Below are positions 3,338 through 57,885 of a DNA stretch of 64,000 nucleotides, piece by piece; position 1 is the stretch's first letter; every line of letters begins with the position of its first letter. This DNA comes from Endomicrobiia bacterium (lineage in GTDB: Bacteria; Elusimicrobiota; Endomicrobiia; DTEH01), in contig JBCNUU010000003.1 of NCBI GenBank assembly GCA_039630545.1, positions 99,250 through 163,249 on the forward strand, given 5' to 3'. A program made the position numbers and the translations under genes. The notes beneath the pieces were generated by a model. The model saw only the letters and a program-made list of their open reading frames with translations, had not been told where the DNA came from and made no database searches.

Positions 3338-4333
3338 TTATACTTCAATAATGTTTTCTTTAATTGAAACTTTACTATTTATAAATTTTTCTACAACTGC
3401 AATGTTTGAGACTATGTGATCCGTAAGTAGCGGTATTCTAACTTTACCACCGACAAGTCCTAAATATGGAATAATTTGATCCGCACTGTATCTATCTAAA
3501 GAAAATTTTTTAAGATCTTCTAATAAAACATTTACACATTCTTTAGCGATATCCTCAGCAGGTGTACCGATTTCACCTGATAACGAACTGCCGACGACAC
3601 CATTTTTTGTATTAGCACAAATTGTTATACCGCATCCATCACATATTGTTTCAACATAGTTAAGTTGTGTTTCTATGGGTAACTTGTGATTTTTTTCTAA
3701 AATCTCTTTAGCTTTATCAACCATTCTTTCTAAGACATTTCTTTTTCTTAAACTATTAGAAGACACAGCAACTATGTTGATTTTTTTGTCTTCACCCAAA
3801 TCAGTAATAAAAATTTTTTCATAAGAGTTTGCTGGTTTTATTTTTACTTCAACTTCAGCACCACCTTTTGGGTAAAATCCATGTTTTATAACATTAATTT
3901 TAACCTCCATCCCGAGTTTTCTTAGCCAGTGACAAAAAACTTTGTCAATAAAATCAATTGATGGTGCCCATTTTCCATAAGTAGCACCACCTGAAATTTT
4001 TATGTTTAACGGATACTTTAATCCAACAATTAACAAACTTTGTAAAACTAATCCTACAGAGCCAGCCGTAGAAATTTTTATTTCCAGCGAAGTTATATTT
4101 ATCTTTTTAGGTGAAAAGTAAAGCTCAGCTGACCCTTTATACGCACCTTTCACTTCAGCATCTGAAAGTTTAGCTAATGCTAACACACATTGTAGATGTT
4201 GTTCTTGAAGGCCAGAGTTAGGTCTGTTTTTTCGAATGTTTGTTATATAAAATGGTTTGTTAAGTAAACAAGATAGTCCTAGTGCTGTTCTTAAAACTTG
4301 TCCACCACCTATAGAACCATCTATTGTAATCAT
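3338..4333 (-). CDS. rtcA: RNA 3'-terminal phosphate cyclase
   Basis: N-terminus MITIDGSIGGGQVLRTALGLS matches the RtcA signature. Length 331 aa. It converges on the GT gene with a 2-bp spacer. Confidence 0.85.
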   Translation of the reverse strand: MITIDGSIGGGQVLRTALGLSCLLNKPFYITNIRKNRPNSGLQEQHLQCVLALAKLSDAEVKGAYKGSAELYFSPKKINITSLEIKISTAGSVGLVLQSLLIVGLKYPLNIKISGGATYGKWAPSIDFIDKVFCHWLRKLGMEVKINVIKHGFYPKGGAEVEVKIKPANSYEKIFITDLGEDKKINIVAVSSNSLRKRNVLERMVDKAKEILEKNHKLPIETQLNYVETICDGCGITICANTKNGVVGSSLSGEIGTPAEDIAKECVNVLLEDLKKFSLDRYSADQIIPYLGLVGGKVRIPLLTDHIVSNIAVVEKFINSKVSIKENIIEV

Positions 4334-4470: not shown

Positions 4471-6369
4471 GTGACTGAAGCACTTTCTAAACTTAAAAGT
4501 ATCCTTAAAGATCAAGAATATAAAAAATTAGAAAAGATAAAAAATAAAGAAGTACATGAATTCATATTAAAATCAATTGAATTGTGTACTCCAGCAGATG
4601 TATTTATTTGTTCTGATACACTTGAAGAAATTGCATATATAAGAAATATGGCAATTGTTTCTGGGGAGGAATCAGCAGCACTTCTTACTCCTGGGCATAC
4701 ATTTCACTTTGATGGTATCAACGATCAAGGTAGGGATCGTGGTGTTACAAAATTTTTAGTTCCAAAAGGAGATAAACTTTCGAAAAAACTAAACCAGATT
4801 GACAGAGAAGAAGGCTTAAATGAAATTTTGGGACTTCTTAAAAACTCAATGAAAGGTAGGATAATGATTGTAAGATTCTTAACATTAGGCCCCTCAAATT
4901 CAGTATTTTCAATACCTTGTATGGAATGCACTGATAGTTGGTATGTAGCACATTCTGTAAGTCTACTTTACAGAGAAGGATATAATATGTTTTTAACCCT
5001 ACCAGAGAATGCTGAAATTTTTAAAACCTTACATTCTTCTGGTGAGGTTGAAACAATAAGCAATGGTTTTCCTGTTAGTAAAAATTATGATAAAAAAAGA
5101 ATTTATATTGATTATATCACAAACACTGTATATAGTGTCAACACACAGTACGCAGGTAATTCTGTTGGGTTTAAAAAACTAGCCTTAAGACTTGCAATAA
5201 GAAAAGCGCATAAAGAAGGCTGGCTTGCTGAACATTTTATGCTTATGGGAGTAAAAGGTCCAAATAACAGAAAAACATACTTTGCTGGTGCTTTTCCTTC
5301 TGCTTGTGGAAAAACTTCAACTGCGATGTTACCTGGAGAAACGATTCTTGCTGATGATTTAGCATATGTAAGAAATATAAATGGAGAATGTCGCGCAGTA
5401 AACGTTGAAAAAGGTATTTTTGGTATAATACAGGATGTAAATCCTAAAGATGATCCTTTAATCTGGCAAGTTTTAAACTCTCCTGGTGAGGTGATATTTA
5501 GCAATGTTTTAGTAAAAGATGCCAAAACCTGGTGGCTTGGTATGGGAGTTGAACTTCCAGAAGAAGGAAGAAACTTTAGCGGTCAGTGGTATAAAGGCAA
5601 AAAAGATGACTCAGGCGAAGAAATTCCTGCAGCACATAAAAATGCAAGATATACTGTTTCGCTTAAAGCACTTGCAAATTGTGATGAAGAATTAGAAAAT
5701 CCAGAAGGTGTATATCTTGCTGGTATAATGTTTGGGGGAAGAGACTACAGAGGTTATGTTCCGGTTCAGCAGAGTTTTGACTGGACACATGGAGTTGTAG
5801 CTTTTGGAGCAGCGTTAGAAACAGAAACCACTTTTGCGATTGTAGAAGAAGAAGGTAAATATGAGATAAACATAATGAGTATTCAAGATTTTGTTTCTAT
5901 ACCGTTAGGCACTTATGTAAAAAATTATATTGAGTTTGGTAAGAAATTAAAAAAACCTACAATAATATTTGGTGTGAATTATTTCTTGCGAGATTTAAAA
6001 ACAGGAGAGTTTTTAAATTCTCGTAGAGATAAACATATCTGGGTAAAATGGATGGAGTTGAGAGTTCACAACGATGTAAAAGCAAGGAAGACACCAACTG
6101 GGCTTATACCATTATATGAAGACTTAGTTCCACTTTTTAAATCTATTCTTAACAAAGACTATAAAAAAGAAGATTATATAAAACAGTTCACCATTCGTGT
6201 TCCAGAAAATCTAGCAAAGATAGACAGAGTAGTAAAATTCTGGCAGCAAGAGGAAAACACTCCTCAAGAAATTTACGATGTTTTGGAGGCACAAAAACAG
6301 AGATTACTTGAAGCACAAAAGAAATTCGGTGATTATATTTCTCCTGAAAATTTTGAAGTTGTAATATGA
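4471..6369 (+). CDS. pckG: phosphoenolpyruvate carboxykinase (GTP)
   Basis: FPSACGKTS kinase-1a motif of GTP-PEPCK, 632 aa, GTG start with AAGGAGG RBS. Confidence 0.9.
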   Translation: MTEALSKLKSILKDQEYKKLEKIKNKEVHEFILKSIELCTPADVFICSDTLEEIAYIRNMAIVSGEESAALLTPGHTFHFDGINDQGRDRGVTKFLVPKGDKLSKKLNQIDREEGLNEILGLLKNSMKGRIMIVRFLTLGPSNSVFSIPCMECTDSWYVAHSVSLLYREGYNMFLTLPENAEIFKTLHSSGEVETISNGFPVSKNYDKKRIYIDYITNTVYSVNTQYAGNSVGFKKLALRLAIRKAHKEGWLAEHFMLMGVKGPNNRKTYFAGAFPSACGKTSTAMLPGETILADDLAYVRNINGECRAVNVEKGIFGIIQDVNPKDDPLIWQVLNSPGEVIFSNVLVKDAKTWWLGMGVELPEEGRNFSGQWYKGKKDDSGEEIPAAHKNARYTVSLKALANCDEELENPEGVYLAGIMFGGRDYRGYVPVQQSFDWTHGVVAFGAALETETTFAIVEEEGKYEINIMSIQDFVSIPLGTYVKNYIEFGKKLKKPTIIFGVNYFLRDLKTGEFLNSRRDKHIWVKWMELRVHNDVKARKTPTGLIPLYEDLVPLFKSILNKDYKKEDYIKQFTIRVPENLAKIDRVVKFWQQEENTPQEIYDVLEAQKQRLLEAQKKFGDYISPENFEVVI

Positions 6370-6373
6370 TAAA

Positions 6374-6646
6374 GTGAAGTTAAATATAAAGTTCACAGAG
6401 CATTGTAAAAACAAATTATACCAAAGAAAGATTCCATTGGAGCAAATTAAAAAGGTTTTAACTTCATATGATTTTATGGAAATTGATAAATTTGATACTT
6501 CTGTGTTTCACTTCATTAAAAAAATTTCTGGAAAATTTTTAAGAGTGATTGCGAAACAAATAGAAAATGATTGTTACCTAATTATTACTGCTTTTTTTGA
6601 TAGACGATTATTAAGGAGGTTTAGACGTGATACAAATAAATTATGA
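6374..6646 (+). CDS. DUF4258-family putative toxin (RNase-like)
   Basis: 90 aa. FTEHCKNKL...IPLEQIKKVL...GKFLRVIAKQIENDCYLIITAFF matches the DUF4258 pattern. GTG start 4 nt after the pckG stop. Confidence 0.6.
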   Translation: MKLNIKFTEHCKNKLYQRKIPLEQIKKVLTSYDFMEIDKFDTSVFHFIKKISGKFLRVIAKQIENDCYLIITAFFDRRLLRRFRRDTNKL

Positions 6647-6827
6647 TAAAGAAGGAGATATTCTAGAAATAAAATTTTCAGAGGTCCCTATCCAGGAGAG
6701 TGAATATTTGAAAAAAAGTGGAATAGTAATAGATTATGATAATGAAGGTAAAATTGTTGCTATTGAAGTTCTTTCGTATAGTAAAAGAGTAAAAAAGGAA
6801 ACTCTACCAGAACTAGCTGCGATTTAA
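6627..6827 (+). CDS. DUF2283-family putative antitoxin
   Basis: 66 aa. NYDKEGDILEIKFSE...GIVIDYDNEGKIVAIEVLSYSKRV is a classic DUF2283 sequence. GTG start with AGGAGG RBS, overlapping the upstream ORF by 20 nt. Confidence 0.65.
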   Translation: MIQINYDKEGDILEIKFSEVPIQESEYLKKSGIVIDYDNEGKIVAIEVLSYSKRVKKETLPELAAI

Positions 6828-6964: not shown

Positions 6965-7453
6965 ATGAAAAAATTAATAAGTATAATAATGGGCTCTGAC
7001 TCAGATCTTCCTACAATGAAAGATACAGCAAAAACACTTGAAGAGTTTGAAGTAGGCTATGAGATAAAGATTCTTTCTGCTCACAGAACTCCTGATGATC
7101 TAAAGGAATATATAAAACAGGCAGAACAAACCGGAATAGAACTATTCATAGCAGCTGCAGGTGGAGCTGCACATCTTGCTGGAGTTATTGCAGCACATAC
7201 TACTCTTCCTGTAATTGGGGTTCCAATGGAGTCTCCACTTAATGGATTTGACTCTATACTTTCTATGCTTCAGATGCCACCGGGAGTCCCTGTAGCGGTT
7301 GTGTCTAAAGGTTCATGGGGTGCCAAAAACTCTGCCATATTGGCAATTCAAATTTTGTCTCTAAAATATCCTGAATTAAAAGAAAAACTTAAACAGTACA
7401 AACAAAAAATGGCAGAATCTGTAAGACAAAAAAATAATGCGTTGCAAATCTAA
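6965..7453 (+). CDS. purE: N5-carboxyaminoimidazole ribonucleotide mutase (PurE)
   Basis: [13 protein letters not shown]...[15 protein letters not shown]...PVIGVP are PurE signatures. 162 aa. Confidence 0.85.
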
Positions 7454-8418: not shown

Positions 8419-8834
8419 TCATTGTGATTCTTGTTTATAAAATTTTAATAATAACTGTGCTGGTTTTGCATCTTTTGTGGATTTCTTTTATGATTTATGG
8501 ATTTTTTTATAATATCGTAGGGCTATTCTTTAAAAAACAACTTTTGAAAAATTTCTGGTTAAGGACTCTTCATGTTGTAGGGATAATATATGTGGCAGTT
8601 ATTACTTTTTTAGATAAATATTGTCCTTTAACAATATTAGAGATTTATTTAAGAAGAAAGATAGAAAGTTCTTTCTCAGGTATGGATTCTTTTATAGTTT
8701 ATTATCTTGAGAAACTTATCTACCCTGAGGTGAATCCTGATCTGATAATAGTTCCTACTTATTTAATTGCAATTTTAAGTTTAGTAATATATATAATAAA
8801 ACCACCAATAAATTTCCAAATAAGGAGGCCATAA
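8400..8834 (+). CDS. hypothetical integral membrane protein
   Basis: 144 aa, 3-4 predicted hydrophobic helices, TTG start, no recognisable motif. Confidence 0.4.
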   Translation: MFYKSIIIVILVYKILIITVLVLHLLWISFMIYGFFYNIVGLFFKKQLLKNFWLRTLHVVGIIYVAVITFLDKYCPLTILEIYLRRKIESSFSGMDSFIVYYLEKLIYPEVNPDLIIVPTYLIAILSLVIYIIKPPINFQIRRP

Positions 8835-8837
8835 AAA

Positions 8838-10034
8838 GTGAAAGGACTTTCATCAAAAGTTCTAAAAGTATCACCTTCAGCTACATTAGGGATTACAGCT
8901 AAAGCAAAACAACTTAAATCACAGGGAATAAAAGTTATTGCCTTCGCTGCAGGAGAACCGGATTTTGATACTCCGGATTTTATAAAACAGAAAGCAAAAG
9001 AATCTTTAGATAAAGGTCTTACTAAATACACTCCAACAGCAGGTATACCAGAACTTAAACAAGCAATATGTGAAAAATTAAAAAAAGAAAATAACTTAGA
9101 ATACACACCGGAAGAAGTTTTAGTTTCCTGTGGAGCAAAACACTCTATATTTAATGCTGTTATGGCTTTAGTGGATGATGGCGATGAAGTTTTGCTACCA
9201 AAACCATACTGGGTAAGCTATCCAGAAATGATAAAGTTTGCTGGAGGAAAAATAGTAGAGATCCCCACCGATGAAAAAACAAACTTCAAAATTAAAGCAG
9301 AACAACTTAAACAATACATAACTTCAAAAACAAAACTTTTGATTCTAAACTATCCTTCTAACCCTACAGGCATGATGTATACAAAAAAGGAGTTAGAAGA
9401 AATAGCAAAAGTTTTAGTAGAATCACAGATTTACTGCATCTCTGATGAGATATATGAAAAACTTGTATATGACGGCGTAGAGTTTGTAAGTATAGCTTCA
9501 CTTGGTCCAGAAATTAAAAAACTTACAATTACAGTAAACGGTTTATCAAAATCATGCTCTATGACTGGTTGGAGAGTTGGGTATGCATGTGGTCCTAAAG
9601 AGATAATTCAAGCTATGAGTAATCTCCAGGATCATTCCACCTCAAATATTACAACTTTTGTACAGTATGCATCTGTTGATGCTATTAAATTCGGAGAAGA
9701 TTCTATAAGAAAAATGGTTCAAGAATTTAAGATAAGAAGAGATTTTATTGTTGAAGAAATAAACAAAATTCCAGGGCTTTCCACAATTAAACCACAAGGT
9801 GCTTTCTATGTTTGGGTAAACATAAAAAAATTAAAAGGTAAAAACTATAACAATACTACTATCACTGATTCTATGAAATTAACAGAGCTTCTTTTAACAG
9901 AAGCGAAAGTAGCAGTTATACCTGGATGTGTTTTTGGTGACGATGACTACATAAGGTTGTCTTATGCTACATCAATGGAAGATATAAAAGAAGGATTAAA
10001 CAATATAAAAAACTTTGTAAGCAAATTGACATAA
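8838..10034 (+). CDS. aspC: aspartate/aromatic aminotransferase (class I PLP-dependent)
   Basis: GLSKSCSMTGWRVGYACGP PLP-lysine region, 398 aa, GTG start with AGGAGG RBS. Confidence 0.85.
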   Translation: MKGLSSKVLKVSPSATLGITAKAKQLKSQGIKVIAFAAGEPDFDTPDFIKQKAKESLDKGLTKYTPTAGIPELKQAICEKLKKENNLEYTPEEVLVSCGAKHSIFNAVMALVDDGDEVLLPKPYWVSYPEMIKFAGGKIVEIPTDEKTNFKIKAEQLKQYITSKTKLLILNYPSNPTGMMYTKKELEEIAKVLVESQIYCISDEIYEKLVYDGVEFVSIASLGPEIKKLTITVNGLSKSCSMTGWRVGYACGPKEIIQAMSNLQDHSTSNITTFVQYASVDAIKFGEDSIRKMVQEFKIRRDFIVEEINKIPGLSTIKPQGAFYVWVNIKKLKGKNYNNTTITDSMKLTELLLTEAKVAVIPGCVFGDDDYIRLSYATSMEDIKEGLNNIKNFVSKLT

Positions 10035-11256: not shown

Positions 11257-11994
11257 ATGGATATAAAAGAAATACTTAGAAAATACAAACAAAACAAGTT
11301 GTCTACAAAACAAGTTTTAAAATATCTTAAAGAATTTCCATATAAGAGACTTTTTGATGCTACCCTTGACATACACAGAGAAATAAGAAAAGGTATCCCG
11401 GAGATTGTATATTGTTTACACAAAAAAGAAAATCAAATTTTAGATATAATCAACAATTTATCTGCTGTTCACAAGTTAGTAATAGGAACAAGATTAGATA
11501 AAGAGAAGTATCTAAAAATAAAAGATAAACTGCCTGAAAACCATGTATACTTTGAAAATGCCCAGATAATAGCTTTAGGAAAACTTCCAAAAAGTAAAAA
11601 AGGATGTATTTTGATTATCACAGCCGGAACAACAGACATTCCTGTAGCAGAGGAAGCAAAAGTTATATGCGAACTTTTAGGAAATAAAGTGATATGTGTG
11701 TATGATGTAGGAGTAGCTGGTCTTCATAGGTTAAACGAAGTTTTAACTTACCTCAACAAGGCAAAAGTAGTAATAGTAGTTGCTGGAATGGATGGAGTTT
11801 TGCCTTCTGTTGTCGGAGGGTTATCAAAAGTTCCTGTGATTGCTGTGCCAACTTCCACAGGGTATGGTGCAAATTTTGGAGGAGTTGCTCCTCTTTTGAC
11901 TATGTTGAATTCTTGTGCTCCAGGGGTTGTGGTGGTAAATATAAATAATGGATTTGGAGCTGGTTATGCTGCCCACCTGATTAATCAAAAGTAA
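11257..11994 (+). CDS. larB: LarB-like PurE-family carboxylase (nickel-pincer cofactor biosynthesis protein LarB / AIR carboxylase-related)
   Basis: C-terminal PurE-like domain ILIITAGTTDIPVAEE...VVAGMDGVLPSVVGG...AVPTSTGYGANFGG with an N-terminal extension typical of LarB. Confidence 0.7.
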   Translation: MDIKEILRKYKQNKLSTKQVLKYLKEFPYKRLFDATLDIHREIRKGIPEIVYCLHKKENQILDIINNLSAVHKLVIGTRLDKEKYLKIKDKLPENHVYFENAQIIALGKLPKSKKGCILIITAGTTDIPVAEEAKVICELLGNKVICVYDVGVAGLHRLNEVLTYLNKAKVVIVVAGMDGVLPSVVGGLSKVPVIAVPTSTGYGANFGGVAPLLTMLNSCAPGVVVVNINNGFGAGYAAHLINQK

Positions 11995-17864: not shown

Positions 17865-19667
17865 ATGAAAAAAAATGAGTTAAGATCTTTAATATCGTGG
17901 GTGCTTATTTTCTTTTTAATTTTTATGTTCTTTCGCGGAATAAAAGACATACAGGCAGAGAAAGAAATCCTTTATTCTGATTTTAAATCTCTCTTAAGGG
18001 AAGGGAAAATTCTGGAGGTAAAGTTAAAATCAGATGTAATTTCTGGTAAATATAGAGAGGACTCAAAAGTAATAAATTTTAAAACTTACAGAATCCCTGA
18101 AGACTCCAGACTGGTGGAGGAATTAGAATACTATAATGTAAAATTCACAGCAACTGCTGATAGAGGAAGCTGGTTTTGGTCTGTGCTTTTGAACTTTGGA
18201 CCTGTAGTGTTAATATTTATACTTTGGTATTTATGGACAAAACAACTTCAATCCGGCGGAAAACAAGCAATGATGTTTGGAAAATCTCGTGCGAGGTTAT
18301 ATACAGGTAAAAACAAAAGCGATGTTACATTTAAAGATGTTGCTGGATGTGATGAGGTAAAAGAAGAACTGCAGGAGATAATAGAGTTTTTAAAAGACCC
18401 AAAAAAATTTCAGCGACTTGGAGGAAAAATTCCAAAAGGCGTTTTGCTTTATGGACCTCCAGGAACAGGAAAAACTCTTCTTGCTAAAGCAGTAGCAGGT
18501 GAAGCTGGTGTTCCGTTTTTTTCTGCGTCGGGTTCTGAATTTGTGGAGATGTTTGTTGGAGTTGGGGCATCCAGAGTAAGAGATCTTTTCGAACAAGGAA
18601 GAAAATACGCTCCGTGTTTGCTTTTCATAGATGAACTTGATGCAGTTGGAAGACACAGGTTTGCAGGAATAGGTGGTGGGCATGATGAAAGAGAACAAAC
18701 CTTAAATCAACTCCTTGTAGAATTAGACGGGTTTGATACTACAGAAGGTGTAATTTTAATAGGAGCAACAAATAGGCCCGATGTTTTAGATCCCGCGTTG
18801 TTAAGGCCTGGTCGTTTTGATAGACACATTGTAGTTCCTGTCCCTGATATTAAAGGAAGAGAAGAAATCCTTAAAGTCCACACAAGAAAAGTAAAATTAG
18901 CAGATGATGTAAACTTATCAATAATAGCTCAAAGAACTCCTGGTTTTGTAGGAGCAGACCTTGCAAACTTAGTAAACGAAGCAGCACTCTTAGCAGCAAG
19001 AAAAAATAAAGATGCAGTTGATATGTCTGACTTTGATGAGGCAATTGAAAAAGTAATGGCAGGACCAGCACGAAAATCAAGAGTAATTTCTGAAAGAGAA
19101 AAGAAAATTATCGCCTACCATGAAGCAGGACACGCTTTAGTTGCAAAACTCACACCTGGCTGTGATCCTGTTCATAAAATTTCTCTTATTCCAAGAGGAC
19201 CAGCGTTAGGTTATACATTACAGCTTCCTGCAGAAGACAAATACATAATCTCAAAACAAGAACTGTTAAACAAAATTTCAGTTTTGTTAGGAGGAAGGAC
19301 TGCTGAAAAAATTGTGTTTAACGATATCACAACAGGAGCACAAAATGATCTTTCAAAAGCAACAGAAATAGCAACTAAAATGGTTACAGAATATGGTATG
19401 TCTGAAAAAATAGGTCCTTTAACTTTAAGAAAACGTGAAGAAGAAATTTTTTTAGGCAGGGACTATCTTACAAAAGAAAAAATGTATTCAGAAGCTACTG
19501 CCAGACTTATTGATGAAGAAATTAAAAATATTGTAGAAAGTTGTTCTCAGGGTGTAGAAAATCTATTGTCAAAGAATATAAATAAACTTCACTCATTAGC
19601 ACAAAAGTTAATAGAAAAAGAAGTCCTTGAAGCAGCTGAAATTGATGAGATTATAGCTAACAGTTAA
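17865..19667 (+). CDS. ftsH: ATP-dependent zinc metalloprotease FtsH
   Basis: N-terminal TM segments, Walker [12 protein letters not shown] region and the HEAGH zinc motif. Confidence 0.95.
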
Positions 19668-53085: not shown

Positions 53086-54144
53086 ATGAAAACTTATAAA
53101 ATTGCAGTAATTCCTGGTGATGGGACAGGACCTGAGGTTGTTGCTGAAGGAATTAAAGTTTTAAAAGAAGCAGCCAAAAAATATAATATTAAAATTGAGT
53201 TCGTTAAATTTGATTTTGGAGGTGAAAGATATTTAAGAACAGGTGAAACATTACCTGATAGTGCTATTGAAGAACTAAGAAAGTTTGATGCAATATACCT
53301 TGGAGCGATTGGTCATCCAGATGTAAAACCGGGAATTTTAGAAGTAGGAATATTGTTGAAGTTAAGATTTGTGTTTGATCAATATATAAATTTAAGGCCG
53401 GTAAAGCTTTACAGAAAGGAAGATACTCCACTAAAAGACAAAGAACCGCAAGATATAGATTTTGTTGTAATAAGAGAAAATACAGGTGGTCTGTATAGTG
53501 GTATAGGAGGAATTCAACAAAAGAACACCAAAAATGAAATAGCTACTCAACTTATGATTTATTCATATCATCAAGTGGAAAGATGTATAAGATATGCTTA
53601 TGAATATACAAAAAAAAGAAACAAAAAAAAACAACTCACTTTAGTTCATAAAATAAATGTTTTAACTTACTGTGGAGATTTATGGTGGAGAGTTTTTCAG
53701 GAAGTAGGCAAAGAATATCCAGATATAAAACAAGATTACAACCATGTAGATGCATGCTGTATGTGGTTTGTTAAATCTCCAGAGTTTTATGATGTAATAG
53801 TAACAGAAAATATGTTTGGAGATATTATTACTGATTTAGCTGCTATAATCCAGGGAGGGTTAGGGATCGCAGCTGGAGCAAACATAAATCCATCAGGAAT
53901 TTCAATGTTTGAGCCAATGGGTGGTTCTGCACCAAAATATACTGGTAAAAATGTAATAAATCCTCTAGCAGCAATATACGCAGCAGCAATGATGATGGAT
54001 TTTTTAGGTGAAAAAGAAGCATCCCAAGCAATTGAAGAAGCTATAAAGAAAGCACTTTTAAGTGGAAAAATAAAAAGTTTATCTGCAGGAAAGATGGGGC
54101 TTTCAACTACAGAAGTTGGTGATTTAGTTGCAAGTTTGATTTGA
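53086..54144 (+). CDS. decarboxylating dehydrogenase of the isopropylmalate/tartrate/isocitrate DH family (LeuB-like)
   Basis: KIAVIPGDGTGPEV N-terminus and NMFGDIITDLAA signature. Confidence 0.7.
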   Translation: MKTYKIAVIPGDGTGPEVVAEGIKVLKEAAKKYNIKIEFVKFDFGGERYLRTGETLPDSAIEELRKFDAIYLGAIGHPDVKPGILEVGILLKLRFVFDQYINLRPVKLYRKEDTPLKDKEPQDIDFVVIRENTGGLYSGIGGIQQKNTKNEIATQLMIYSYHQVERCIRYAYEYTKKRNKKKQLTLVHKINVLTYCGDLWWRVFQEVGKEYPDIKQDYNHVDACCMWFVKSPEFYDVIVTENMFGDIITDLAAIIQGGLGIAAGANINPSGISMFEPMGGSAPKYTGKNVINPLAAIYAAAMMMDFLGEKEASQAIEEAIKKALLSGKIKSLSAGKMGLSTTEVGDLVASLI

Positions 54145-54176
54145 TTATAGATTTTTATTTTTTATTATTATGAATT

Positions 54177-55544
54177 ATGAGTAAAAATAAGCTATATATA
54201 AAAACACAAACAAAACGAGATATAAAAATAATAAAAGAAACGAGTGAACAATTTACAATGTTTAAGGTTGAAAAATTTCCCTCATATGATGAGATACTTA
54301 AAGATTATTCAAAAGAATTTTCAAATTATATCCTCCCACAAGGAGATACAACTTTTGGATTTTGGATGCAAACATTAGCAGATCTAGAACTGTTAGATTT
54401 AGAGTTACAAGGATTGGTTGAAGAGTATGAGATAAACCCCTTAAAAAGAACAGTCAAATTTAAAGGAGATGAAGAATTAGTGAGGATGAGAATAGCACAT
54501 CTTGAAAAAGTTGAAAACAAACCAACACTTTATGCAGAATTGGTTGATATGTTTGGAGATACAAATGCATATGGATTTCATAATTTATATCCTTATAAAG
54601 GTAAGTTTTATCCAAGAGTTGTAAGAACTCTGATAAATGCGTTTAAATTAGATAGAAATTCAATAATTCTTGATCCATTTAATGGTTCAGGGACAACTAC
54701 TCATGAAGCTTCATTAATGGGGATAAAAAGTGTTGGTGTAGATATTACACCTATGGGGGTAATTTTAGCAGAACTTAAAAATGAATTACTTTTTTTAAAA
54801 GAAAAAGAACTTAATTTCACAATAGATGAATTAGAAGAAATTTTGAAATTAATAGAAGAAAAAAAATGGAAACACAGTAACTCAACAGTTTATAAGTTGA
54901 TGTTAGTAATATATTTTGACACTGTAGATGCTCTTTTGAGGACTTCGAAGTATAACAGAAAAGGAAAGATTAAGCTTTTTATTGAAAAATTTAATTATAT
55001 AGTAGATTGTCATAAAAAAATACAAAAAGTAAAGGATAAATATAAACTTAATTTTGAACATGCTAAAATTATTCAAGGAGATGCTCTTGAAATTAAAAAT
55101 ATAAATGAAATAAAAGAAAAATTTGATGCTTGCATTACAAGCCCTCCTTATTATTTTTCTATAGATTATGTAGGTAAAGATAAAATAGCATATGATTATT
55201 TAGGCATCGACATAAAGCAAATAGAAAGTAAATATTTAGGTATGAAAAGTGAAGTTTCCTATCGTCAAAATACTTTTGATAGGTTACCATTGAAGGTATT
55301 AAGATATTATGAGGATCTAAAGGAAGCTATAAAAAATATTTATTGGGCATTAAAGACAGGTGCTAATCTTGCAATTATAATTGGAGATAGTACTGTAAAT
55401 GGGAGAAAGATCCCCACAACTATGGTTACTAAAAAATTCTGTGAAGAAATAGGATTCAAATTCGAAAAATTGATATTTAATCCTTTGTTAGGTGTAAGAA
55501 ATAGAGCAATAAGAGGAGAAAGTATAATAATTTGTCACAAATAA
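54177..55544 (+). CDS. site-specific DNA methyltransferase (N6-adenine or N4-cytosine), with motif I (DPFNGSGTT) preceding motif IV (SPPYY)
   Basis: LDPFNGSGTTTHEASLMG at about residue 165 and ACITSPPYYFSIDY at about residue 320, followed by ...WALKTGANLAIIIGDS. Confidence 0.7.
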   Translation: MSKNKLYIKTQTKRDIKIIKETSEQFTMFKVEKFPSYDEILKDYSKEFSNYILPQGDTTFGFWMQTLADLELLDLELQGLVEEYEINPLKRTVKFKGDEELVRMRIAHLEKVENKPTLYAELVDMFGDTNAYGFHNLYPYKGKFYPRVVRTLINAFKLDRNSIILDPFNGSGTTTHEASLMGIKSVGVDITPMGVILAELKNELLFLKEKELNFTIDELEEILKLIEEKKWKHSNSTVYKLMLVIYFDTVDALLRTSKYNRKGKIKLFIEKFNYIVDCHKKIQKVKDKYKLNFEHAKIIQGDALEIKNINEIKEKFDACITSPPYYFSIDYVGKDKIAYDYLGIDIKQIESKYLGMKSEVSYRQNTFDRLPLKVLRYYEDLKEAIKNIYWALKTGANLAIIIGDSTVNGRKIPTTMVTKKFCEEIGFKFEKLIFNPLLGVRNRAIRGESIIICHK

Positions 55545-56785
55545 TTATGAAAATAAGAAGACTACTTATTTCTTCAGAGCCTAAGAATGAAATTGAATCT
55601 GGGCTTAAAAGAATGTATTTAAAAAGAATTCAAGAAATGTTCAAAAGGACTATAAGTATGGAGTCAATTTTTAATGTTTTTGATGAAATTTTTCATGGAT
55701 TGTCTCAAGTATCTTCGTTAAGTGAAGATTTACATAGCTTTTATGAGTCATTGTTGACGATAACATCATATTATCATCATAGTCAAGCAGGACGAGGTAA
55801 TTTAGTAGCAAGGCTATTGGAAACATTAGGTAGCGCAGAGAAAATGGAATTTGAGTTTATTTTAACAAAAATTCCACAATTTTTAAACCAAAACATAGAA
55901 TTGGAAGAAAATGAGTTAACAAAATTAAAGTTTGATGTGGTTAATTTAGTCAAAAATAATCTTATTTTTTGTGAATTAAAAATGAAAGTATATTCTGGTT
56001 GTACTGCTGGGCGTATTGAATTAATGGAGAAGTTTAATAAATTTGTTAAATTGGTTATAGAAAATGAAAGTTTCAGAAAATGTTTACAAAATTCTGGGAT
56101 CAAAAATATTTTTTTAATAGGCGGTATCTTATTTGATATCCAAGGAGAACCAGCGACTCTTAAAAAAGACAAAGAATGGGGAATTTGTTATAATGGTTTG
56201 TTAAGGGGAAAGGACGATATATTAAAGACGTTAAAAAGTAAAAACATTAAATATGAAATTGAAGAAGAAAAATCATTACAGAGGGCATTTGTGATTAACT
56301 TTATACATGGAGATATAAAGATCAATATAATTACAGTCTATGGTAATGAAGTTATAAAATCAATTTTTGGTGGGAAAAATAAATTTGATATTAAATATTT
56401 TAAAAAACTTTTAGAAAATATGTTATATGATGATTTATGGTTAGGACAAATAATTACCCTTAGTGAACGAGCATTATTGAGTAAAAACTTTAAAATAAAT
56501 AAAAAGTTGAAAAATTATATTATCTCAATAATTAAAAGTGAAGAATTAATGTCTGAGATAAAAAAGTTTTCTTTTACTAGAGAAGATGAAAAAATTCTTA
56601 AGGGAATTGTAAGTTTTGTATCTGAAAAGATTAGAAAATATGATAAGGACCTGTTAGGACTTCATCCGACAATTGCAGAGATAATTATTAGTTCGTGTGG
56701 CGAGAAATATGACAGAGAAGATTATATAGCAGATATTATACAATTTTTATCTTGTGAAGAAATAACTAAAAATTTACTCAATTAG
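55532..56785 (+). CDS. hypothetical protein coupled to the DNA methyltransferase; candidate restriction endonuclease
   Basis: 417 aa. Start overlaps the MTase stop (TTG at 55532 or ATG at 55547). Possible PD-(D/E)xK-like element FDVVNLVKNNLIFCELKMK. No other motif recognised. Confidence 0.4.
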   Translation: MSQIIMKIRRLLISSEPKNEIESGLKRMYLKRIQEMFKRTISMESIFNVFDEIFHGLSQVSSLSEDLHSFYESLLTITSYYHHSQAGRGNLVARLLETLGSAEKMEFEFILTKIPQFLNQNIELEENELTKLKFDVVNLVKNNLIFCELKMKVYSGCTAGRIELMEKFNKFVKLVIENESFRKCLQNSGIKNIFLIGGILFDIQGEPATLKKDKEWGICYNGLLRGKDDILKTLKSKNIKYEIEEEKSLQRAFVINFIHGDIKINIITVYGNEVIKSIFGGKNKFDIKYFKKLLENMLYDDLWLGQIITLSERALLSKNFKINKKLKNYIISIIKSEELMSEIKKFSFTREDEKILKGIVSFVSEKIRKYDKDLLGLHPTIAEIIISSCGEKYDREDYIADIIQFLSCEEITKNLLN

Positions 56786-56802
56786 AAAGGAGTTTTAAAA
56801 CA

Positions 56803-57885
56803 ATGTTTAACATAGCAGTAGTAGGAGCAACAGGAGCAGTTGGACAGGAGATGTTGAATATGCTTGATATAAGGAATTTTCCTGTAAATAAAATATATCC
56901 TTTTGCTTCAGAGAGATCAAAAGGTAAAAAAATTATTTTTAAAAATAAAGAATATGAAGTAATTGAACTAACAAAAGAAAATGTTAAAAAATATTCAAAA
57001 GAAATCCAGCTAGCATTGTTTTCAGCTGGAGCTTCAGTTTCAAAAGAATTTGCTCCTGTTTTTGCTGAAGAAGGAATTTTTGTAGTGGATAACTCTTCTG
57101 CCTGGAGGATGGAACCAGAAGTACCACTTGTAGTCCCACAGGTAAACTCACATACTTTGTCAAAAGATAAGAAAATAATAGCAAATCCAAACTGTTCCAC
57201 GATACAGATGGTTGTTGTATTGGCACCTATTCACAAAGTAGCAAAAATCAAAAGAATAATTGTTTCCACCTACCAATCTGTTTCAGGTGCTGGTGGCAAA
57301 GCAATGATTGAACTTTATAATGAATCTCAGAAAGTTTTAGCTAATCTTTCTAAACTTGAGTCTCTTATTACAAAAGATAATACTGGTTTTTTAGTTGAAA
57401 AACAAACTCCTTCTGTGTTTCCTGTTCAGATAGCATTTAACCTGATCCCTCAGATTGATATTTTTATGGAAAATTTGTATACTAAAGAAGAAATGAAGAT
57501 GGTAAATGAAACTAAAAAAATTTTAGAATCTCCGGATATTAAAATTTCAGCACAGTGTGTAAGAGTACCTGTATTTAGAGCACATTCCGAATCAGTATGG
57601 ATTGAAACAGAAAAGAAAATATCTTCTCAAGAAGCAAGAAATATTCTTTCATCTTTAAAAGAAGTAAAAGTAATAGATGATGTGTTCAACAAAGAGGCAA
57701 GTTTTAGATATCCTACTCCACTGGAGGCAACATGTAAGCAGGTCACCTATGTTGGAAGAATAAGAGAAGATATATCCTGCGAAAATGGGTTAGTGATGTG
57801 GATAGTTTCTGATAATCTTCTTAAAGGTGCAGCACTAAATGCTGTGGAGATTTTGGAAGAACTTTTGAATAAAAAAATCATATGA
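56803..57885 (+). CDS. asd: aspartate-semialdehyde dehydrogenase
   Basis: NIAVVGATGAVGQEM NAD(P)-binding N-terminus and IANPNCSTI catalytic cysteine. Confidence 0.9.
   Translation: MFNIAVVGATGAVGQEMLNMLDIRNFPVNKIYPFASERSKGKKIIFKNKEYEVIELTKENVKKYSKEIQLALFSAGASVSKEFAPVFAEEGIFVVDNSSAWRMEPEVPLVVPQVNSHTLSKDKKIIANPNCSTIQMVVVLAPIHKVAKIKRIIVSTYQSVSGAGGKAMIELYNESQKVLANLSKLESLITKDNTGFLVEKQTPSVFPVQIAFNLIPQIDIFMENLYTKEEMKMVNETKKILESPDIKISAQCVRVPVFRAHSESVWIETEKKISSQEARNILSSLKEVKVIDDVFNKEASFRYPTPLEATCKQVTYVGRIREDISCENGLVMWIVSDNLLKGAALNAVEILEELLNKKII

Follow-up and report, generated by a model that had tools for sequence, protein, structure and literature searches.

The 64,000-nucleotide stretch analysed here, called the window below (positions 99,250 to 163,249 of contig JBCNUU010000003.1, assembly GCA_039630545.1, from an Endomicrobiia bacterium), carries two adjacent open reading frames (ORFs) between the gene for an isocitrate/isopropylmalate-type dehydrogenase and asd, the gene for aspartate-semialdehyde dehydrogenase. 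The first gene (M) encodes a DNA amino-methyltransferase. The second (R, or ORF2) encodes a protein that belongs to no described sequence family and is predicted to be a nuclease of the PD-(D/E)xK type (Table 1). Together the two genes probably constitute a Type II restriction-modification system, of which both the cleavage and the methylation activity are predicted. An earlier note on this DNA had put the pair forward as a candidate novel Type II system, and that proposal is now supported by the predicted fold of the second protein, by the linkage of the two genes, and by the matches of the first protein to DNA methyltransferases.

Table 1. Positions in the window of the two genes, their motifs, junctions and flanking genes. 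L034 is a related locus without the pair (see text); SAM, S-adenosylmethionine.
Feature	Position	Strand	Basis
Isocitrate/isopropylmalate-type dehydrogenase gene, upstream of M	53086-54144		Pfam Iso_dh 4e-99
Left junction: 32-nt AT-rich spacer, dehydrogenase stop to M ATG	54145..54176	.	L034 empty-site alignment
DNA amino-methyltransferase gene (M), 455 aa	54177..55544	+	ORF list, Pfam, PADLOC, homologues
Motif I (SAM binding) DPFNGSGTT, residues 166-174	54672..54698	+	regex position
Motif IV (catalytic) SPPY, residues 322-325	55140..55151	+	regex position
M/R junction: M stop TAA (55542-55544), 2 nt, ORF2 ATG	55542..55549	+	sequence
Predicted restriction endonuclease gene (R, ORF2), 412 aa, unannotated family	55547..56785	+	start by homologue alignment
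Putative catalytic D130 ... E143-x-K145 (FDVVNLVKNNLIFCELK; FDVVN...CELKMK)	55934..55981	+	conservation, predicted strands
Right junction: ORF2 stop TAG inside TTAGAAAGGAGTTTTA shared with the empty site (asd ribosome-binding region)	56783..56802	.	alignment with L034
Aspartate-semialdehyde dehydrogenase gene asd, downstream of R	56803-57885		Pfam 3e-53 and 1e-34

The methyltransferase and the predicted endonuclease

The methyltransferase bears the DPFxGSGTT and SPPY motifs named in the earlier note, and their spacing, given there as about 155 residues with motif I ahead of motif IV in the reverse of the beta-class order, was measured as 156 residues. Residues D166, P167, F168, N169, G170, S171, G172 and T173 of motif I are invariant among 12 homologues; SPPY, which stands within the segment C-I-T-S-P-P-Y-Y-F-S, is likewise invariant among homologues. 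The motifs DPFxGSGTT and (S/D)PPY are shared with the N6/N4 amino-methyltransferases of PF01555, most of which are of the beta class (M.PvuII, M.RsrI, CcrM). Unlike the beta class, in which motif IV lies N-terminal to motif I, M has the alpha/gamma-type order, and it adds to the PF01555 architecture a conserved N-terminal region of about 140 residues. The Pfam profile N6_N4_Mtase matches M at 1.1e-13 through its positions 114-212 of 221 only, on the N-terminal half of the protein, and this placement of the C-terminal part of the profile fits a motif order permuted relative to the beta class. In PADLOC, the best match is to MTase_II (PDLC03224, 3.7e-31, 107 bits), aligned co-linearly, and 24 of the 25 best matches are to Type II DNA methyltransferase models. 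Since models with the same order exist among the PADLOC Type II methyltransferases, the order itself is not new. Homologues of M are full length and 70-87% identical, carry the NCBI name 'DNA methyltransferase', and come from WOR-3, Hydrogenedens, Ignavibacteria, Defluviitoga and Micrarchaeaceae. The N-terminus of M is common to P0213, with conservation from Q25, upstream of the next ATG. Both ORFs of the pair have hundreds of full-length homologues at 65-75% identity and hence are not chance reading frames. The motif SPP(Y/F) is usual for N4-cytosine enzymes and (D/N)PP(Y/F) for N6-adenine enzymes, with known exceptions (PMC3425538); judging from SPPY, the base that M would modify is most likely cytosine, at N4.

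On these matches M looks like a DNA enzyme. The earlier note had allowed that it might prove to be an RNA methyltransferase. An enzyme acting on tRNA or rRNA, next to a functionally unrelated ORF, would account for the weak matches centred on motif I to TIGR01177 (47.6 bits), Trm14 (28 bits) and UPF0020, and for a match in the PDB, also centred on motif I, to an archaeal tRNA m2G10 methyltransferase (1.2e-6). The cut-offs, however, are 316 bits for TIGR01177 and 280 for Trm14, the family matches span only about 50 residues around motif I, as do those to PDB sequences, and the DNA methyltransferase models score far higher. Moreover, M is not a core gene: it is absent from close relatives, crosses the domains of life together with ORF2, and occurs in integron cassette arrays among defence genes (see below). 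With matches so short and so far below their cut-offs, and a gene that is accessory and mobile, the RNA methyltransferase reading was rejected as improbable in the extreme.

The second ORF encodes 417 residues when taken mechanically from TTG 55532, and 412 from ATG 55547. All of the close homologues (31/31) begin at the equivalent of M-x-(I/L)-R-K-L-L, which identifies ATG 55547 as the real start and, of the two positions considered in the earlier note, inside the M gene or 2 nt after its stop codon, settles on the latter. The resulting junction reads ...CAC AAA TAA TT ATG AAA, an arrangement that suggests translational coupling of the two genes. As had been surmised, the protein has no recognisable family: scanned alone it gave no match in Pfam, NCBIfam or PADLOC, and among PDB sequences only a chance-level one (interleukin-31, E 0.8). 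A Pfam scan of all 35 members of the ORF2 family and a search of PDB sequences with the family profile were equally without a match, so that no significant sequence or profile similarity links ORF2 to an established family of PD-(D/E)xK enzymes. A large protein database contains 241 homologues, of which the best 120 are about 410 aa long and 65-72% identical (a range that leaves out two copies of the window protein itself). Among the sources of these 120 are Endomicrobiia (with ABDH23_03110, the protein of the window), Kryptobacter, Hydrogenedentota, Ratteibacteria, WOR-3 and a Bacteroidetes/Chlorobi bacterium, and, among Archaea, Pacearchaeota, Micrarchaeaceae and Nitrososphaerota. None of the 120 bears a functional name, those named at all being called 'hypothetical protein'. 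The family is small, as its profile retrieved only 91 clusters at E < 1e-3 from 1.84 billion cluster representatives; ten distant clusters that were looked up are all unnamed or 'hypothetical', and all stem from metagenomes or metagenome-assembled genomes.

In the 35-member alignment of this family, which extends to 20% identity, the conserved positions are G51, Y75, D130, K145, G151, R156, E158, K162, G193, D208, Y265, G266, D295, D296 and R308, and the segment FDVVN...CELKMK stands out, by alignment, as the most conserved element. None of 32 close homologues departs from D130, E143 or K145 of this segment; across all 35 sequences the conservation of D130 and of K145 is at least 90%, and position 143 is mostly E, with D in a few. 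The D...E-x-K element that the earlier note had regarded as possible is therefore near-invariant, and it falls on predicted strands 2 and 3. An AlphaFold2 model built first from close homologues reached a predicted local distance difference test score (pLDDT) of 61.8; it was replaced by a model from a diverse alignment, with pLDDT 92.1 and a predicted template modelling score (pTM) of 0.82. The core of the latter consists of a strand (99-105), a helix (106-112), two strands (128-135 and 138-147), a helix (152-172) and a further strand (187-196), flanked by helical regions at the N-terminus (residues 1-95) and C-terminus (282-412). Strand 2 carries D130 and strand 3 carries E143-x-K145, as in PD-(D/E)xK enzymes, and the model, in silico, shows both the alpha-beta-beta-beta-alpha-beta core of this superfamily and its placement of an acidic residue and (D/E)xK. 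When the model was compared with the PDB by Foldseek, the first two places went to the Type II enzyme EcoO109I (1wte, probability 0.99, E 0.016, template modelling (TM) score 0.34/0.46), and the other top matches were mostly PD-(D/E)xK nucleases as well, namely cap-snatching endonucleases, the R2 endonuclease, a BspD6I subunit and AF1548. Homology to a non-nuclease family, which the earlier note had named as grounds for abandoning its proposal, was not found; a PD-(D/E)xK core was confidently predicted instead. The fold class and catalytic motif of ORF2 can be regarded as well supported.

EcoO109I and ORF2 have the PD-(D/E)xK core in common, and differ in other respects. ORF2 has additional helical domains and exceeds EcoO109I by some 140 residues, the two superpose with a TM-score of no more than 0.34-0.46, and no sequence similarity to EcoO109I or to any other PDB chain is detectable even with the family profile. 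The partner enzymes differ too: M.EcoO109I is a C5-cytosine enzyme, whereas the window methyltransferase is an amino-methyltransferase.

Linkage of the two genes and the case for a Type II system

Immediately upstream of each close ORF2 homologue that was fetched with its context (3/3) is a gene for a methyltransferase about 445 aa long. Across 185,579 species-representative genomes, 27 ORF2 loci were found, in 27 genomes that are all metagenome-assembled, with no cultured organism among the carriers found. In every one of the 20 complete modules (20/20) the methyltransferase lies directly upstream of R, with a stop-to-start gap of -11 to +18 nt; the hosts of these modules include Hydrogenedentota, WOR-3, Ignavibacteria, Kryptobacter, Verrucomicrobiota and Nitrososphaerota. 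The association extends to distant relatives of ORF2 (26-43% identity), four of five of which adjoin a methyltransferase 60-71% identical to that of the window. Here the gene order varies, being R then M (L119/L120; loci in other genomes are designated by L and a number), M then R (L121, L122) or convergent (L116/L117). To judge from these identities, the nuclease-like ORF2 evolves far faster than the methyltransferase; a methyltransferase better conserved than its partner and a variable gene order are usual for restriction-modification systems. Two loci in which M is intact have a decayed R, frameshifted in L026 (6001-7222) and truncated at residue 170 in L028 (6001-6510), as would be expected of a toxic nuclease gene. 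The module contexts examined contain no additional conserved gene beside the pair. Defence genes are found near the modules, among them GmrSD, a second methyltransferase with a small ORF, Type I hsdM/hsdS, and AbiJ.

Further loci carry decayed or altered modules. In L024 (171-4925) the methyltransferase is truncated, R lacks its 5' end, and a second segment resembling a methyltransferase (26% identity) is present, and L029 (Caldimicrobium; 136-2768) has the order R then M with frameshifts in both genes. In L115 (6930-11284) and L012 (1-2992) the module is a three-gene variant, in which a 554-aa gene of the GmrSD family (Type IV-like), 79% identical between the two loci, stands between M and R.

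In the window, exactly two ORFs are inserted, separate adjacent M and R genes with no ATPase, translocase or specificity subunit, and M carries both the SAM-binding and the catalytic motif of DNA methyltransferases. This is the layout of classical Type II (IIP-like) systems, which consist of two adjacent genes without ATPase, helicase or specificity subunit, and which, like this pair, are horizontally mobile and found in defence islands. As far as sequence can tell, the pair has every Type II feature that is testable in silico. We propose that the methyltransferase would methylate an exocyclic amino group within a specific short sequence of the host chromosome, and that the downstream protein would act as a Mg2+-dependent PD-(D/E)xK endonuclease with the catalytic core D130, E143 and K145, cutting the same sequence when unmethylated and so restricting incoming phage or plasmid DNA. 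As there is a single methyltransferase, the site would be expected to be symmetric (palindromic). The nuclease gene has no well-placed ribosome-binding site of its own and is probably translated by re-initiation after M, so that the nuclease would be made only where the methyltransferase is made.

A different role for ORF2 deserves consideration. It may be a nuclease-like partner that is not a classical sequence-specific endonuclease, such as a nicking enzyme, a non-specific effector or a DNA-binding specificity or regulatory partner, or it may need host factors. Its size (412 aa with large helical end domains, bigger than most Type IIP enzymes) and the weakness of all structural matches would suit such a role. 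So would the GmrSD gene placed between M and R in two hosts, which implies that tight coupling of M and R is not obligatory, and the very different constraints implied by a methyltransferase that stays 60-71% identical while ORF2 falls to 26%. Against this, the D...(E/D)xK triad is conserved throughout the family on the expected strands, no further conserved gene accompanies the pair, and variable gene order together with decay of R first is typical of restriction-modification systems. We therefore consider a non-classical ORF2 unlikely, though the least unlikely of the alternatives, and retain the Type II system as the probable interpretation.

Several observations nevertheless weigh against that interpretation. 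All fold matches of ORF2 are weak, none in the PDB falling below E 1e-3 (the top-ranked are all at or above 0.011) and the best TM-score being 0.46; the nuclease assignment accordingly rests on fold class and motif, and not on homology to a characterised enzyme. One ORF2 relative of 31% identity (L118, 1381-2676) has no methyltransferase within the approximately 1.4 kb upstream and 2.9 kb downstream that make up the whole of its 5.5-kb contig. The rule that links SPPY with N4-cytosine has its exceptions (PMC3425538). There is neither a recognisable Shine-Dalgarno sequence before the methyltransferase gene in the window nor a clear promoter. Finally, palindrome avoidance, compared between 243 kb of carrier loci and 576 kb of control loci, singled out no candidate recognition site. 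In the L118 contig, the neighbouring genes encode proteins of 181 aa and 236 aa without Pfam match and a Ser/Thr kinase.

In the comparison of palindromes, GATC, GGCC, CTAG, CATG and GTAC were all depleted in carriers, and the depletion therefore does not point to any one site as that of this system. Observed/expected ratios in carriers and controls were 0.42 and 0.83 for GATC, 0.27 and 0.82 for GGCC, 0.19 and 0.49 for CTAG, and 0.49 and 0.82 for GTAC; in the window alone, the most depleted palindromes are CTAG, GTAC, GATC and ACGT. Such general depletion of 4-bp palindromes suggests that many restriction systems operate in these lineages. Because GGCC is depleted in carriers, M.CbeI was considered as a relative of M. 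It is an alpha-class N4-methylcytosine (m4C) methyltransferase specific for GGCC, of 33 kDa, belonging to the D12 class and having DPPY as its motif (PMC3425538), and it was rejected on account of these latter properties.

Should the 412-aa protein prove to work as a restriction enzyme, it would represent a new sequence family among the PD-(D/E)xK Type II enzymes, and this family could supply molecular biology with a new, perhaps thermostable, specificity. All its members found in this analysis derive from metagenomes or metagenome-assembled genomes. The understanding of restriction-modification would not change: this is a well-supported system of an ordinary kind, in which the enzyme family appears to be new and the mode of spread is already known.

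Insertion between the dehydrogenase gene and asd

The flanking genes, described in the earlier note as leuB-like and asd, were assigned by Pfam to Iso_dh and to aspartate-semialdehyde dehydrogenase (Table 1), and the insertion suspected there was brought out by comparison with related genomes. A metagenome scan with the asd protein of the window retrieved the locus L034, in which the two flanking genes are 84-86% identical at the protein level and the gene order is that of the window (SNF transporter, PpiD-like, lipoprotein, dehydrogenase, asd, YdjC, truA, glmU). In L034 the interval from the dehydrogenase stop codon to the start of asd is just 76 nt long and does not contain the pair. The dehydrogenase gene and asd are also adjacent, and the pair absent, in the more distant L035 and L039. 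Alignment of the junctions with L034 shows that the extra DNA of the window is almost exactly the two ORFs, with 17 nt remaining between the ORF2 stop and asd. The pair is thus shown, by sequence comparison, to be a horizontally acquired insertion between an Iso_dh-family dehydrogenase gene and asd. At the insertion, no flanking repeat, terminal inverted repeat or terminator was found that exceeded chance expectation. The GC content of the pair, 0.267, is within the lowest 4% of 2.6-kb windows, and its third-position GC equals that of the neighbouring genes, so the insertion is either not recent or derived from a similarly AT-rich donor.

Insertions of restriction-modification genes have likewise been recognised by comparing occupied with empty loci by Furuta et al. 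2010 (PMC2853133) and for the PluTI element (PMC2875022), and as in those cases the window pair sits in a co-directional run of housekeeping genes. Unlike the units described there, the window locus has no detectable target-site duplication, terminal repeat or linked mobility gene.

In other hosts the pair takes the form of an integron cassette (see below), and the window copy would either have lost, or never had, the attC site and the 5' leader of the cassette copies. The leader, with its ribosome-binding site (gaagagaggaaaaact-ATG), is absent from the window, where just 32 AT-rich nucleotides precede the methyltransferase ATG; together with the missing attC and a host-like third-position GC that speaks for long residence, this raises the question of whether the pair in the window, though its ORFs are intact, has become inactive or domesticated and is no longer expressed as a working system, possibly with only the methyltransferase still active, as an orphan epigenetic enzyme. 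Yet neither ORF is shortened, all residues invariant in the family are preserved, the coupling of M stop and R start is kept, and expression could come from a weak promoter-like site at 54141-54168 or from co-directional read-through from the upstream gene. Decay to a remnant is judged very unlikely.

Integron cassettes carrying the pair in other hosts

The same pair, 65-75% identical across many bacterial and archaeal phyla, occurs in some hosts as an integron cassette and in the window as an insertion without cassette features among housekeeping genes, and so would illustrate both the cross-domain spread of a defence system and the chromosomal fixation of a cassette. The cassette form goes beyond what the earlier note had foreseen. 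attC sites were sought by nhmmer and with a covariance model built from those of the family; a first covariance model, with an automatic consensus structure, had only 4 base pairs and was replaced by one with a hand-specified R/L-box structure. An attC lies downstream of R in L003, L008, L010, L011, L012, L014, L016, L018, L024, L027, L033 and L115. An imperfect palindrome some 90 nt long stands on either side of the modules and has the features of an integron attC site, namely an R'' box (GTATAAC or GCCTAAC), an L''/L' stem (AGCATAAAAG / CTTTTATGCT), and an R' box reading GTTAGGC in L027, GTTAGAC in L016 and L024, GTTAAGC in L010, and GTTATAC or GTTATAT elsewhere. Conservation of the left flank between hosts begins near the R' box, as expected if R' is the cassette boundary. 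Of four attC sites tested, three had bottom-strand hairpins with z-scores between -2.8 and -3.9, and the R and L helices were paired in 79.7% of cells, compared with 34-51% in slid controls.

Arrays of three to five attC sites are present in L003, L010, L024, L027 and L115. Further sites were detected by nhmmer and with the covariance model in L010, L024, L027, L115 and L033 (from a Methanophagales archaeon), without exception on the cassette strand. L003, which is on the same contig as L004 and L114, has sites at 1795-1890, 2885-2980, 4489-4581, 7295-7390 and 8812-8882, four of them 1.1-2.8 kb apart and the fifth, a weaker one, from the covariance model. Its cassettes carry GmrSD, an unknown ORF of 304 aa, a CcrM-like methyltransferase of 272 aa with an unknown ORF of 216 aa, possibly a second restriction-modification pair, then the M-R pair, and a TPR protein. 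In L115, the three-gene unit with GmrSD lies between two attC sites (6616-6707 and 11268-11359).

An integron integrase gene was found in one host only. In L008 it lies at 1151-1744 on the minus strand, about 2.2 kb upstream and divergent, and it is decayed: it matches TIGR02249 with 303.6 bits (cut-off 265) and has the segment ALERKYP...W.WQYVFPA, with an internal stop and without its N-terminus. No integrase was found within 10 kb in L114, where only a remnant of 41 intI-like residues occurs at 3813-3935, and the L003/L114 array hence lacks an integrase. With attC boxes and hairpins, arrays and, in L008, an integrase gene nearby, the homologous modules in other hosts have the attributes of integron cassettes.

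The cassette copies also carry GTCATTGGCAAAAT, a 14-nt inverted repeat without mismatches, of which one arm lies about 25-30 nt ahead of the M ATG and the complement just after the R stop. Its arms flank the pair on the inner side of the attC boxes. Both sides are present in L003 (4620-4633 / 7238-7251), L008 (3869-3882 / 6487-6500), L011 (4619-4632 / 7238-7251) and L024 (108-121 / 4948-4961), and the examinable side in L012, L014 and L027. A second complementary block, GCAATTGGTCG / CGACCAACAGC, is situated beside R' and R''. In a circularised cassette, the two would lengthen the attC hairpin by about 40 bp. An extra inverted repeat of this kind is not known as a standard attC feature. A transposon with GTCATTGGCAAAAT as terminal inverted repeats was considered and rejected in favour of attC-flanked integron cassettes, on the grounds of the arrays, the R'' and R' boxes and the intI remnant.

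In the window copy, by contrast, neither the covariance model nor nhmmer finds an attC near 54177-56802, the best covariance match being 35 kb away at 19390-19474 (16 bits, E 0.71), and there is no integron context. Earlier work (Ghaly et al. 2022, PMC9668308) described integron cassettes that encode methylation or restriction, and also integrons of Nanoarchaeota and Thermoproteota. The modules of about 12 hosts resemble such defence cassettes, including those of Archaea, in being attC-bounded and lying in arrays beside other cassettes; the window copy differs from them in lacking attC and integron context, and the cassette copies differ in adding the GTCATTGGCAAAAT repeat. Known spread by integron cassettes accounts for the cross-domain distribution of the pair, and its occurrence across bacterial and archaeal phyla fits such exchange. 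A possibility for the arrival of the window copy is capture at a secondary site, followed by loss of attC and leader.

A broader and more speculative view would be that ORF2 founds an endonuclease family without a characterised member, with an uncatalogued specificity or mode of cleavage, possibly thermostable since its hosts come from hot springs; that the family has spread between Bacteria and Archaea by means of integrons; and that GTCATTGGCAAAAT extends the attC hairpin, aiding mobility or the control of expression. As a whole we regard this view as tentative and as less likely than not.

In L008, two direct repeats of about 121 nt, 100% identical, flank the cassette region (3621-3741 and 6610-6733), one lying about 130 nt to the left of the left inverted repeat and the other beginning 8 nt after the attC. 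Duplication of the start of a neighbouring cassette, a long target duplication or an artefact of assembly could each account for them.

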